18,817 nt of DNA from Octopus sinensis (GCF_006345805.1 NW_021824134.1:1-18817), one strand, 5' to 3'. Counted from the first letter of the stretch, positions 11,917 to 18,782 are shown. Program-made: numbers and translations. The notes: generated from the letters alone by a model not told the origin.

Positions 11917-12301
11917 TGGAGGCGCAATGGCCCAGTGGTTAGGGCAGCAGACTCGCGGTCATAGGATCGCGGTTTCGATTCCCAGACCGGGCGTTGTGAG
12001 TGTTTATTGAGCGAAAACACCTAAAAGCTCCACGAGGCTCCGGCAGGGGATGGTGGTGATCTCTGCTGTACTCTTTCACCACAACTTTCTCTCACTCTTA
12101 CTTCCTATTTCTGTTGTACCTGTATTTCAAAGGGCCGGCCTTGTCACTCTCTGTGTCACGCTGAATATCCCCGAGAACTACGTTAAGGGTACACGTATCT
12201 GTGGAATGCTCAGCCACTTACACGTTAATTTCACGAGTAGGCTGTTCTGTTGATCGGATCAACCGGAACCCTCGTCGTCGTAACCGACGGAGTGCTTCCA
12301 C
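11917..12301 (+). mobile_element. tRNA-derived SINE (family B, tail type 1) with a 13-bp TSD
   Basis: Head GGAGGCGCAATGGCCCAGTGGTTAGGG...GGTTTCGATTCCC carries A and B boxes. TSD ATATATTCTTAAG at 11904-11916 and 12302-12314. Confidence 0.92.
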
Positions 12302-12385
12302 ATATATTCTTAAGCATTGCAGTCATGTACTCTGTTTCCTTGATTGGAATATACAACATATCTGTACGCAATATATTGATTTCAT

Positions 12386-12764
12386 AAAGCGGTGCGCTGG
12401 CAGAATCGTTAGCACGCCGGGCGAGATGCATAGCGGTATTTCGTGTCTTTACGTTCTGAGTTCAAATTCCGCCGAGGTCGACTTGCCTTTCATTCTTTCG
12501 GGATCGATTAATTAAGTACCAGTTACGCACTGGGTCGATATAATCGACTTAATCCGTTCGTTTGTCCTCTCTGTGTTTAGCCCCTTGTGGGTAGTAAAGA
12601 AATAGGTATTTCGTCTGTCTATACGTTCTGAGTTCAAATTTCACCGAGGTCGACTTTGCCTTTCGGGAACATTAAATTAAGTACGAGCTGCGTACTGGGG
12701 TCGATCTTATCAATTGGCCCGCCCCTCCCCCAAAATTTTGAGCCTTGTGTCTAGAGTAGAAACG
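12386..12764 (+). mobile_element. Dimeric Nin-domain SINE (family N) with a 16-bp TSD
   Basis: The body GGTATTTCG...GAGTTCAAATT..CCGAGGTCGAC occurs twice (~12435 and ~12605). TSD AATATATTGATTTCAT at 12370-12385 and 12765-12780. Confidence 0.88.
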
Positions 12765-12774
12765 AATATATTGA

Positions 12775-12958
12775 TTTCATGTTTTGACAAAAGGTCAGTG
12801 TGCGAAGGTAAGTCCATTACATCGACATATATTATCGACCCCGAAAGGATGAAATGCTAAGTTGACCTCGGCGGAATTTGAACTCAAAATTGTAAGCCGG
12901 ACGAAATGTCATTAAGCATTTTATTCAGCATGCTTATGATTCTGCCAGCCCGCCGCTT
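12775..12958 (-). mobile_element. Family N SINE in reverse orientation
   Basis: ATCGACCCCGAAAGGATGAAA...GACCTCGGCGGAATTTGAACTC...GATTCTGCCAGC is the reverse complement of the 12386 unit. Confidence 0.85.
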
Positions 12959-12993
12959 GATGAAAACTATATATTGTAGTAATGTAGTTCAAC

Positions 12994-13401
12994 CAGGAGT
13001 GGCTCTGTGGTAAGAAGCCTGCTTCCTATCCACGTGGTTCCGAGTTCAGTCCTACTACGTGGTACCTTGGGCAAGTATCTTTTACTATAGCCTCGGGCTG
13101 ACCAAAGCGTTGTGAGAAGATTTGGTAGACGGAAACTGAAAGAAGCCTGTCGTATATATGTATACATATGTATACATTTGTGAGTCTGTGTTTGTCCCGC
13201 CCCTCACCATCGCTTGACAACCAATGCTGGTGTGTTTACGTATCCGTAACTTAGTGGTTTGGTAAAAAGAGACCGATAGAATAAGTACTAGGCTTACAAA
13301 GAATAAGTCCTGGGGGTCGATTTAATTGACTAAAAGCAGTGCTTGCTCCAGCATAGCCGCAGTAAAATGACTGAAACAAGCAAAAGAATAAAAGAATAAA
13401 A
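12994..13401 (+). mobile_element. Family A SINE, full length
   Basis: CAGGAGTGGCTCTGTGGTAAG...GAGTTCAGTCC...CTTGGGCAAGT...TGACTGAAACAAGCAAAAGAATAAAAG. Confidence 0.9.
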
Positions 13402-13590
13402 GGATGTGATATCTGATACATAACTGTATATAACATAGGTTGTTTATAGTATGATACCAGGTTATATAACATTTTAAATGTATTATGCAATAGCTTATAA
13501 CTTGTAGTATATGATAGAATATGATGGACTCTACCGTCGTATGAGTATTCAGTTTTTTGCTGAACAAACCTGCACAAATGATTTGTTTAT

Positions 13591-13754
13591 AGTGATCTGT
13601 GTGGTAAGTAGCTTGTTTACCAACCACATGGTTCCGGGTTCAGTCCCACTGCGTGGCACCTTGGGCAAGTGTCTTCTACTATAGCCTCGGGCCAACCAAA
13701 GCCTTGTGAGTGGATTTGGTAGACGGAAACTGAAAGAAGCCTGTCGTATATATG

Positions 13755-13805
<51 letters not shown>

Positions 13806-14018
13806 ATGTGTCTGTGTTTGTCCCCCTAGCATTGCTTGACAACCGTTGCTGGTGAGTTTATGTCCCCGCTACTTAGCGGTTCGGCAAAAGAGACCGATAG
13901 AAAAAGTACTGGGCTTACAAAAGAATAAGTCCCGGGGTCGAGTTGCTCGATTAAAGGCGGTGCTCCAGCATGGCCGCAGTCAAATAACTGAAACAAGTAA
14001 AAGAGAGTAAAAGAGTAA
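13591..14018 (+). mobile_element. Family A SINE, near full length, internal (TA)n(TG)n
   Basis: Near-identical to the reverse complement of 6735-7140, with tail GAAACAAGTAAAAGAGAGTAAAAGAGTAAA. Confidence 0.92.
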
Positions 14019-14029
14019 ATGTATGAGCT

Positions 14030-14234
14030 GTACGTTATCTCAGTCCCGCCATCAAATCGACTTTACCTGAACAGGTGGACGGTGTATCACCTGTCAGGTG
14101 GGTGACGAAATGATCACAGACCAACGTGATATGAAATGTTTTGCTAAAGAGCTCAACGGCCCACCCGGTCTGGGAATTGAAACCGCGATCTCGTGATCGT
14201 GATTGCAACACCTTAACCACTAAGCCATGCGACC
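14030..14234 (-). mobile_element. tRNA-derived SINE (family C/B-related head)
   Basis: The reverse complement is GGTCGCATGGCTTAGTGGTTAAGG...GGTTTCAATTCCCAGACCGGG...TTTAGCAAAACATTTCATATCACG, related to the 1563 and 11917 heads. Confidence 0.75.
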
Positions 14235-14254
14235 TTATATCATTTTATAAAATA

Positions 14255-14438
14255 CTCTCTTTTACTCTTTTACTTGTTTCAGTCATTTGACTGCGGCCAT
14301 GCTGGAGCACCGCCTTTTAGTCGAGCAAATCGACCCCCAGGACTTATTGTTTGTAAGCCTAGTATTTATTCTGTCGGTCTGTTTAGCCGAACCGCTAAGT
14401 AACGGCGACGTAAACACACCAGCATCGGTTGTCAAGCA
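14255..14438 (-). mobile_element. Family A SINE, 3' half (5'-truncated), abutting the LINE
   Basis: TTTTACTTGTTTCAGTCATTTGACTGCGGCCATGCTGGAGCACCGCC...GGTTGTCAAGC is nearly identical to 6754-6920. Confidence 0.9.
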
Positions 14439-16197
14439 CATCGAGCGGGTCGGCGAGACCTGAAAGACTACGAAGCCGGTGACAGAGCAAAAATCAACCG
14501 GGAAAGTCAGTGGGCTTGCGGCTCGGCACCTGGAGAAGCAGCCCACCGTCCACCAGTACCCCCGTCGTGGGACGCTGGACAGACGGCTCGGCGTTGGTTG
14601 CTCGGGGTCTGGTTCGGTCCGGACCTCCCAAATGGAGAAGAACTGGAACGAGATAACGAGTATGGTGGTCACTCTCGCCCAGCAATGGGCCGAGAGGAAA
14701 CTGTCCCTAAAGGTCGGGCGGAGGTGGTGAACGCGTACATCGCGTCCATCATCTACTCCCCTGCCTGACCGTCGTACCTTTTCCGACCCTACCATCACCA
14801 AACTAGAACGCATCCCTCCGCTTCTTGTGGAAAGATGCGTCCCGATGGTCAGGCGATCCATTTGCTGCCAACACCCGTTAAAAGGAGGGCTGGGCATGCC
14901 GTGGTTGATGATGCGCAGACACGCGCCTGAGACTGCGACATCTCCGGCTCTATGTAGACGACGGTGAACAGGTGGTCGCCGTTTGTGAGGCACGCATTCC
15001 CGCAACTCTCTCCATGACCGAACTACAACTACGCCGTGGATCAAAAGAGGCCGAAGAAGGGCGAATGGCAACCGCGAGTGTCGCGTTGCTCTCACAACTC
15101 TGCCGTCCCGGGTCGACCTTGAGTGACTCAACACAACCAAGCATCTATAGGGGATTAGTGGAGGGGAGGTACGACGACGAGCTCGGGGCAAACCTGGGCG
15201 TCGACGAGGAATACCTGACCCGCCTGTTTCAAACGACTTTCGGCCCGGGACCTATGGACAACTTCCAGAGATCCCTGGCCTGGCGGTGCTACCGAGAAGC
15301 GCTACCCGTTCGGATAAGCTCTATAGGCATGGCTCGAGAAACACGGGGCCGACTGCCCCGAGATGCGGGCAGAGCGACGAAACCGCTCTGCACGCAATCG
15401 TGCAGTGTCCAGCAATTTCCCACCTGTGGGCTTATGTCGAACGACTGCTGTCACGTGTGGGACGTGTCGGTTTATCAGCCGAGTCTATCGTTAATATCGT
15501 CACGCCTCCTTCCTTCCTCAAACGGGAAGGAAGAGCTATTTTTATCATACTTGTGGCTATGGCGAAAGAATGTATCTGGTGGACGCGTCTGAAAGGATTA
15601 GAGAGAAACCTTTCCTCTCTGGTCAATCTCTCATCAACTTCTTCAAGTATCACTTGAAGAAAAAAGTGAGAGTAGAGAGGCAAGTTTGTCTAGTGAATGT
15701 TTTAAAAAAAGATGGGTGAATGTAGAAGGATGGCACGTATGAATGACGAAGCCACCTTGACTATGATTCTATGAACCGTAAAAATTAATACAGAGAGTTG
15801 CATATTTTGCAAAAAAAAAAAAAAAAAAAAAAAGAAATATAACATGTGACTTCATTGACCGAGGTTACCGTGGTCTTTTCCGTAGGCTTTTCTTTCCACG
15901 GGAAACCTCACTGTCCTCCCTTTACACTTCATATTGACATTTCTGTGATAACGATCCCTATTGATCAATTTTTTTCCTCTCCCCCTTTTTTTTAATCCCC
16001 CCCCTTTTTTGTCCTCTTTCCTCTCCTTTACGATCCCTTTTGATGGACACCCCCACCCCCCCTTTTTATTTTATTTTATTTTATTTTATTTTATTTTTTG
16101 TATTTTATTTTTTATTTTTTTTTTTAACCTTCAAAAGAAAAGCTCTACCTGTAATTTGTTCTCATCTGTGTGCAGCCCTGTGTGGCTAATAAAGAAA
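14439..16197 (+). mobile_element. 5'-truncated non-LTR retrotransposon of the L1/Tx1 clade: ORF2 C-terminal part, frameshifted, plus 3' UTR
   Basis: Motifs read across frames: end of RT (AKINR.KS..LRLG, LLGVWFGPD); WAERKLSLKGRAEVVN; HPLKGGLGMPWL (14872-14907); WRCYREALPV; CPRC-X8-H-X4-C zinc knuckle (15355-15408, one extra C base). The stop is at ~15772-15774. A pyrimidine-rich 3' UTR ends in AATAAAGAAA. Confidence 0.9.
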
Positions 16198-16202
16198 CAT
16201 TC

Positions 16203-16204
<2 letters not shown>

Positions 16205-16262
<58 letters not shown>

Positions 16263-16315: not shown

Positions 16316-16346
<31 letters not shown>

Positions 16347-16347
16347 G
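16205..16347. repeat. (ATCT)n followed by (TA)n microsatellite
   Basis: Directly visible immediately after the LINE 3' end. Confidence 0.95.
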
Positions 16348-16554
16348 ATATACCAATTAAGGACTGAACACGAAAAGTGGACAGTCAACATGCTAGATAT
16401 AGACGTCAAATCGCCATTCACCACAACAGATTATGTTCTCAGATCAAACTCAGTTTGATCTGAGAACATAATCTTTTGTGGTGAATGGCGATTTGACGTC
16501 TATATCTAGCATGTTGACTGTCCACTTTTCGTGTTCAGTCCTTAATTGGTATAT
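16348..16554. repeat. Near-perfect 207-bp palindrome (103-bp arms, 1-nt spacer)
   Basis: The centre is C16451 (AGATCAAACT-C-AGTTTGATCT). I found one mismatch (C16427 vs T16475). Confidence 0.97.
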
Positions 16555-16649
16555 ATAAATATTTTAATCTTCGGATTCTTTTTTAATATGCTAGACCACT
16601 GGTCTTAATTGATAAATATCAATTTCTAATTCTACCCTAATTAATTTTA

Positions 16650-17765: not shown

Positions 17766-18782
17766 TGAGGTTAAGTCAAAAGTGTTTTCGTATTTCAAAC
17801 AAATCATACACTAAAGTCGCTTATTCCTCAAAAGATACACGTCCAAATATATTGCCTGTTGTTATCGTTGTACCAGCAAATAAAAACCATGCTCTTGGTA
17901 TTTTGCTGGTTTAGAGACAAAACCTTCCTGCACCTGTTTCAAATTCGTCCACATCGTTGAACCTCTGTTTGTGCAGCAAAGTGTCAGGGATCGGAAAAAA
18001 TAGTAATCTGAGGGTGCAAGGTCTGGACTGTAGGCAGGGTGAGACAGCACTTGTAGGAGGCGCAATGGCCCAGTTGTTAGGGCAGCGGACTCGCGGTAGG
18101 AGGATCGCGGTTTCGATTCCCAGACCGGGCGTTGTGTGTGTTTATTGAGCGAAAACACCTAAAGCTCCACGAGGCTCCGGCAGGGGGTGGTGGCGACCCC
18201 TGTTGTACTCTTTCGCCCCAACTTTCTCTCACTCTTTCTTCCTGTTTCTTGTCCCCAACTTTCTACGCAACTGCTGAGCCTGGATGCGCATTCGTCCATA
18301 CGTCGATGCTCTCGATGTCGGGGGTTGACCTGCTTTTTCTTCTGCGGGTTTTACGAATAGCAAAGGACCACGTTTCGGACTTCTGCCACTGGGACGAAGA
18401 CCGCTTCGCTCAACAGCAACAGCACTTGTAATCTCCCACAATTCCTCAAAGTTTGTGCTTGATCAGATTGGCACTTTGTGCAGATGCATTGTCATGCTGT
18501 AGGAATGTACGTCTTCTATTGACCAATGAGAGAAGAGGGCTCTCAAAGCAACATCACTCACTTAAGTTGTTGTTGTTCATAAAGGTTAGCATTCACAGCA
18601 TCCGGGACAGATTGAAAGTGAAACACCCACTCGAAATTCCACCAAACATACAACATGACCCCCCAAAAAAAACAATTCAGCTACGATTGGACAATTGTAT
18701 GAAATTAATAATTACCATAACATAGACATATAAGTTGCCGAAACTCATCAGTGAAAATCCGGAAAAGCTTTTCATTCAACCT

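Follow-up and report, generated by a model that had tools for sequence, protein, structure and literature searches.

The tail of an abundant octopus SINE is related to the 3' ends of Tx1-like LINEs and suggests a partner other than the neighbouring LINE

Which reverse transcriptase copies a short interspersed element (SINE) whose 3' tail resembles that of a long interspersed element (LINE) in its own neighbourhood? The question is raised by a stretch of 18,817 nucleotides (nt) from Octopus sinensis (GCF_006345805.1 NW_021824134.1:1-18817), here called the window, in which a two-unit SINE copy lies upstream of a truncated Tx1-like LINE. A first-pass annotation had noticed a common tail in the two elements and proposed that this LINE drives the SINE subfamily. 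The tail observation is real and family-wide. As claimed, the SINE tail at 12561-12602 and the LINE end at 16155-16197 are identical in 35 of 43 columns. Their local alignment scores 44, a value reached by none of 1000 dinucleotide shuffles of the SINE region (mean 20.1, standard deviation 2.7, maximum 33). A blastn search inside the window returns the match with an E-value of about 1e-5, and the next-best match of the LINE end to the rest of the window scores only 18. Both of the stem-loops that had been proposed are present as 4-bp hairpins in the minimum-energy folds, at 12580-12592 (+ strand; 5-nt loop) in the SINE and at 16174-16187 (6-nt loop) in the LINE.

The SINE copy in the window (12386-12764, + strand) is enclosed as a whole by one exact 16-nt target-site duplication (12370..12385 and 12765..12780, +). 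Its first unit comprises a head (12386..12470) with visible A-box-like (12398-12408) and B-box-like (12458-12470) motifs, in which neither ARAGORN nor Rfam matched a tRNA, and a central domain (12471..12560) that is putatively Nin/Deu-like; this domain is kept in 30/30 copies and recurs at 12605-12711. The Tx1-type tail (12561..12604) follows, with a pyrimidine-rich part, the hairpin and then TAAAGAAATA. A second unit (12605..12764, +) starts exactly at a position of the head that we call site 1 (in the first unit, between 12434 and 12435) and carries another tail at about 12730-12764. A possible 4-bp stem can be drawn in this second tail, with a 5-nt loop sequence equal to that of the Tx1-type tail; it is absent from the predicted fold. 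The segment first noticed is thus a SINE tail for the family, and in this copy it is internal rather than the 3' terminus. It occurs in all 30 best SINE matches (a few with internal deletions) and is not confined to the window. Across the 2.72 Gb of genome searched, 85,399 places match the tail pattern exactly, and none matches its reversed control. The monomers are about 230 nt long with a tail of roughly 55 nt; they are short, non-coding, present in high copy and flanked by duplications. The window also contains the same core at 3488-3621 (+) and 12834-12965 (-), in two older and decayed copies that lack the Tx1-type tail.

The LINE (14435..16199, + strand) belongs to what we call family A. 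The 1.77-kb copy is 5'-truncated and frameshifted and retains the end of open reading frame 2 (ORF2) and the 3' untranslated region; its 5' end adjoins an inverted SINE. Its tail (16155..16199, +) consists of the hairpin region and AATAAAGAAA, without poly(A). The copy is 94-95% identical to long family A copies, which reach about 6.2-6.3 kb at full length. In a long copy, the Pfam profiles Exo_endo_phos, RVT_1 and zf-RVT score above the cut-off, and zf-RVT matches the window copy itself weakly (E 0.011). The LINE end is no stray local fragment, being kept and identical in 19/19 other family A copies. No named Tx1 reference occurs among the 120 listed homologues or cluster members of the LINE protein, and the closest named homologue among the matches listed is an unannotated Argonauta hians protein (67%). 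The ORF2 of a related family, G, is 57% identical to that of A over the C-terminal part and matches human L1 ORF2 protein (ORF2p) with E 2e-64 versus E 2e-20 for R2, which places the ORF2 of family A, as judged by similarity, with the L1 group.

Searches with zf-RVT and with the protein of a second family brought together many Tx1-like families, 37-70% identical over the C-terminal part of ORF2. Most of them have no poly(A) and terminate 200-470 nt past ORF2, where a pyrimidine-rich stretch is followed by a short hairpin and AATAAAGA; AATAAA is the invariant core of the clade's end, and family P has a variant 3' end. For 19 representatives, stem pairing between their own 5' and 3' halves amounts to 9.5, against 6.9 +/- 0.4 when halves are permuted (0/20,000). 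Covariation is 0.434 versus 0.219, with none of 500 shuffles as high, and exceeds that of all six slid registers. When 24 rows are aligned with plain MAFFT, all four stem pairs change on both sides; only 68% of cells are paired because loop lengths vary. These comparisons, in which relatedness among families is not fully controlled, show the clade ends keeping a 4-bp hairpin through apparently compensatory changes. Similarity to the SINE tail is highest for family C2 (68), followed by B (65), N (64), C (62), B2 (58) and G (57), and family A (45) ranks only 11th of 25. The last 28 nt of family B are the same as in one variant of the SINE, and family P agrees with the upstream part of the SINE tail in 29/30 nt; the scores of G and probably M, which ran into neighbouring SINE DNA, are left out of this segment-wise comparison. 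The shared tail therefore holds at the level of the clade and is closest with B, C, P and N rather than A. Judged from these alignments, the SINE tail is homologous to 3' ends of Tx1/L1-group LINEs.

Where the SINE lands bears on which of these families copies it. The first 100 listed places of the tail pattern yielded 97 distinct tails, of which 31 continue into site 1, one into a second head position (site 2) and 65 are terminal. Terminal copies stop no more than a few bases from AAAGAAA and have neither poly(A) nor a tandem tail; a crude script called target-site duplications of 9-22 nt in 36/65 of them, some in TA repeats. By the sequence that follows, the 97 tails comprise 27 before TATA, 22 GGTA-like, 9 AGAA-like, 31 at site 1, one at site 2 and 7 others. 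Exact junctions of the tail with site 1 number 19,185 genome-wide, counted with a pattern whose 5' end is trimmed slightly relative to the one giving 85,399 tails. Family G was first met as a LINE end joined to site 1 at the start of one sampled SINE chain. It is 5.35 kb long, with ORF1 (520 amino acids) and ORF2 (1134 amino acids) open in several copies, and occupies site 1 at 30/30 of its 3' ends and in 20/20 full-length copies; genome-wide, 119/132 exact family G tails are at site 1. The variable first base of its 16-nt duplication matches on both sides in 20/20 copies (11 C, 9 G), so each copy entered, independently of the others, a SINE already in place. Weak further evidence is a contig, from one of four other public runs, that spans this 3' junction by 33 nt. 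A search of public runs listed no RNA holder and gives no sign of expression. Nested SINE copies and family G use the same base. Families B, E and G group as one clade with support 100, separate from A, and several of their copies have target-site duplications of 16-22 nt, similar to the 9-22 nt of terminal SINE copies.

From these observations, the SINE rather probably depends for its copying in trans on ORF2 protein from a sister lineage, namely the B/E/G clade or its ancestor, and not mainly from family A. In the proposed mechanism, Pol III would transcribe the SINE, and the ORF2p of this lineage, predicted to recognise the hairpin together with the AAUAAAGA signal, would bind the hairpin and start reverse transcription a few bases after AAAGAAA. 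A founder would arise when a SINE lands at site 1 of another SINE and its transcription reads through into the remainder of the host. Such read-through RNAs would be re-copied as whole multi-unit elements, as is likely for the window copy, or from the internal tail, and their first read-through bases would pair with the nicked target and bias the choice of landing sites. More tentatively, and on balance short of what we would assert, these steps could close into a loop: through stringent recognition of the hairpin in RNA, a Tx1 lineage of animals would mobilise a SINE that bears its tail and is at the same time the LINE's own landing site, so that the LINE would multiply its target while read-through SINE RNAs would add a homology guide to target choice.

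The multi-unit copies fit re-copying. Thirty two-unit copies share one form of the junction, although their head bases differ (11 G, 10 C, 5 T, 1 A, 3 unread). As the junction base is independent of the head base, most chains are re-copied rather than freshly inserted, and the idea that every two-unit SINE is a fresh nested insertion was discarded on this ground. The window copy has G as its head base and is indistinguishable from a seamless nested insertion. At one locus (L039), the head is doubled and a duplication is present, which is the founder form expected of a nested SINE insertion. The bases after the tail also go with the tail variant, in line with pairing of read-through bases with the nicked target: 17 copies with the TAA variant fall into 12 GGTA-like, 4 site 1 and 1 other, and 16 with the CAA variant into 7 AGAA-like, 1 site 2, 7 TATA and 1 other, with GGTA-like or site 1 in 0/16. 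In several terminal copies, the duplication starts with the bases right after the tail.

Several observations weigh against copying by the B/E/G lineage. Taken singly, the two hairpins of the window are no more stable than those of shuffled sequences (z -0.09 and -0.18), and the hairpin tests made per family are weak (combined p 0.005). The parts of the SINE tail have different best matches, B for the hairpin and C and P upstream, which makes it a mosaic, and a LINE with the entire SINE tail was not found by two genome pattern searches: a hybrid pattern gave 6 matches, of which the 5 inspected are 3 SINE variants and 2 short non-SINE ends, and a second whole-tail pattern gave family G in 98/100 of the matches listed. 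Family G is nearly site-exclusive, whereas 65/97 SINE tails lie outside SINE heads and 27/97 before TATA. Family G also ends in AAATT and keeps the G or C base of its host, whereas the SINE junctions read AAATA-G in 30/30 cases. The dependence of landing on the tail variant also weakens site sharing as proof of a single endonuclease. Finally, the median divergence from the majority sequence is 6.7% for the SINE, 2.2% for B, 0.2% for A and 0.0% for G, the LINE samples being best hits and biased young; with G at 0.0% and B at 2.2%, present-day G cannot explain the main burst. We infer that the burst was driven by an ancestor of the sampled LINE families.

Two loci (L221 and L225, around 1400-1545) combine a LINE-type upstream part with the SINE's exact hairpin and lack the SINE core; they are possible remnants of a tail donor.

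Among the alternatives, the one that survives best is that many Tx1 families read the tail alike and that a succession or mixture of them, each with its own target signature, has spread the SINE without any single partner. We regard this as unlikely. The motif is indeed clade-wide, the landing classes of the sampled tails are mixed and the tail is a mosaic. In addition, six hand-picked SINE copies have family A's exact junction with (CTAT)n (6/6), flanked by the repeat on both sides in 3 or 4 of them; rare cross-mobilisation by family A or template switching likely lies behind these copies, and family A likely moves the SINE only rarely. Set against this, the abundant family A (2,439 first-look candidates) accounts for at most 0.12% of the SINE tails (103/85,399 followed by (TATC)3, some counted twice; rough background 0.05%), which points to discrimination at the level of the family.

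It is less probable still that the SINE carries its Tx1 tail as the relic of a LINE end captured earlier and is moved by a LINE of another clade, with multi-unit copies made via the second tail. The window copy and 16/30 of the two-unit copies do have an outer duplication around the whole element, which ends in the second tail. No LINE source of this second tail was found among the fetched loci (58 motif matches, with an upstream ORF in none). Yet the 65 terminal tails stop no more than a few bases from the Tx1 end, and SINE-in-SINE joins lie at the exact base used by family G. For the last step that placed the window copy, this explanation probably does hold, through a LINE reading the second tail.

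That the LINE in the window itself drives the SINE, as the first-pass annotation had it, is very improbable in spite of the 35/43 identity of the tails and the rare SINE copies with its junction. The repeat (TATC)n follows the 3' end in 18/19 family A copies, and (CTAT)n precedes 12/12 true 5' ends, counted on best-hit copies after two internal alignment breaks were dropped; the microsatellite is also found at the 5' end of long copies. An encoded (TATC)n tail was ruled out, as the repeat stands on both ends of truncated copies, and the microsatellite on both sides is therefore the target. On the basis of these flanks, the (TATC)n tract at 16204..16260 (+) is read as the target of the window copy. 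As the endonuclease chooses the insertion target (PMC4494074) and the SINE is almost never found in (CTAT)n, family A is not the main driver. The proposal for the window LINE thus failed on its target and on the 10/24 other family representatives with tails closer to that of the SINE, family A standing outside the B/E/G clade; of the comparison of target sites suggested with it, only the few SINE copies with family A's exact junction speak for a link. An origin of the match by chance, or by convergence of AT-rich DNA towards a polyadenylation-like AATAAA, could draw on the invariant core and the stem of only 4 bp but is refuted by the shuffles and by the 28-nt and 29/30-nt identities to families B and P, which occur in the right order, and is scarcely credible.

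Further Tx1-like families show comparable associations. In 9/9 copies of young family P with a readable end (L141 and L143-L150, L143 being looked at only briefly), the LINE runs straight into the head of another abundant SINE family, and this SINE family is also present in the window, e.g., at 12994-13380, 13597-14010 and 14250-14438. At L111:2223-2391 (G000:C15), 4-5 nt separate a Tx1-like LINE 3' end from a complete downstream match to U1 small nuclear RNA (Rfam, 125 bits), possibly a U1-targeting family seen at one locus. Recurring downstream sequences at L112-L119, L159, L165, L170, L151, L157, L163, L156 and L166 suggest further family-specific targets. Many zf-RVT matches are spaced about 5.4 kb apart, in tandem. 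Elsewhere in the window, a third type of tRNA-like SINE head occurs twice (11919-12300 and 18058-18230), and a near-perfect palindrome at 16340-16562 (111-nt arms, 97% complementary, 1-nt spacer) is either a foldback element or an assembly artefact. Broken frames on the minus strand at 5300-6520 contain a GIAMG motif that resembles Penelope-type reverse transcriptase; they have no significant Pfam match.

LINEs are called stringent when a structured 3' tail is needed and relaxed when poly(A) alone suffices, as for human L1. By its sequence features, the octopus system is classed as a variant of the stringent SINE/LINE pair. In crocodilians, SINEU has been tied to Tx1-Mar LINEs through common insertion sites (Kojima 2015, PMC4494074). 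As there, a SINE is here linked to Tx1-clade LINEs, and several Tx1 families with different targets occur in one genome. SINEU, however, has small nuclear RNA heads, poly(A) and a Mariner transposon as target, and similarity to a LINE 3' end is not reported in the available part of that paper, whereas the octopus SINE has a homologous hairpin tail without poly(A) and the common target is the SINE itself. The fish Tx1 elements Kibi and Koshi target microsatellites (same source), just as family A is flanked by a microsatellite on both sides; the likeness is one of description, and the repeats are (TC)n or (TTC)n for Kibi and Koshi versus (CTAT)n for family A. Three SINEs with L1 tails, from maize and Chlamydomonas, appear among 58 pairs (Ohshima 2012, PMC3472496). 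These systems, ZmSINE2/3 with LINE1-1_ZM and SINEX-3_CR with L1-1_CR, likewise have about 50 nt of common 3' tail, a compensated hairpin and an L1-group LINE (PMC3472496, PMC3747384). In the table of SINE/LINE pairs of Ohshima 2013 (PMC3747384), no partner is Tx1. Nin and Deu SINEs with CR1 or L2 tails are likewise modular, with a tRNA head, a conserved core and swapped LINE tails (same source). Bivalve SINEs use CR1-Zenon, CR1, L2 and Nimb (PMC11481361), and for Nin/Deu and bivalve SINEs together the accessible portions of these two papers list CR1, L2, CR1-Zenon, Nimb and Crack, with no Tx1/L1 partner. The stringent L2 elements UnaL2 and ZfL2 are the model for recognition of a 3' stem-loop by ORF2p with family-specific discrimination (PMC4176376); there, recognition was shown by assay, whereas for the octopus system it is read from sequence. 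Kojima 2018 mentions neither Tx1 nor octopus (PMC5786205). In a literature search whose scope did not include Repbase, Dfam and SINEBase, neither this octopus system nor any SINE whose tail derives from Tx1 was found described.

In octopus, tRNA-Deu is a main SINE class (PMC8967140), and papers on octopus repeats give counts for both L1-Tx1 and tRNA-Deu but, in the sections accessible to us, do not link the two (PMC13282606, PMC8967140). The tail-sharing described here would explain part of one of the largest octopus repeat classes, and it provides a case of a LINE that targets a SINE bearing the tail of the LINE's own clade. The case on whether the L1/Tx1 group was ancestrally stringent or relaxed rests, in the survey PMC3472496, on the three plant and algal SINEs. 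An animal Tx1-like radiation that lacks poly(A) and keeps a covarying hairpin, together with a tail-bearing SINE and young copies with open ORF1 and ORF2, would make the question of stringent versus relaxed recognition testable in animals.

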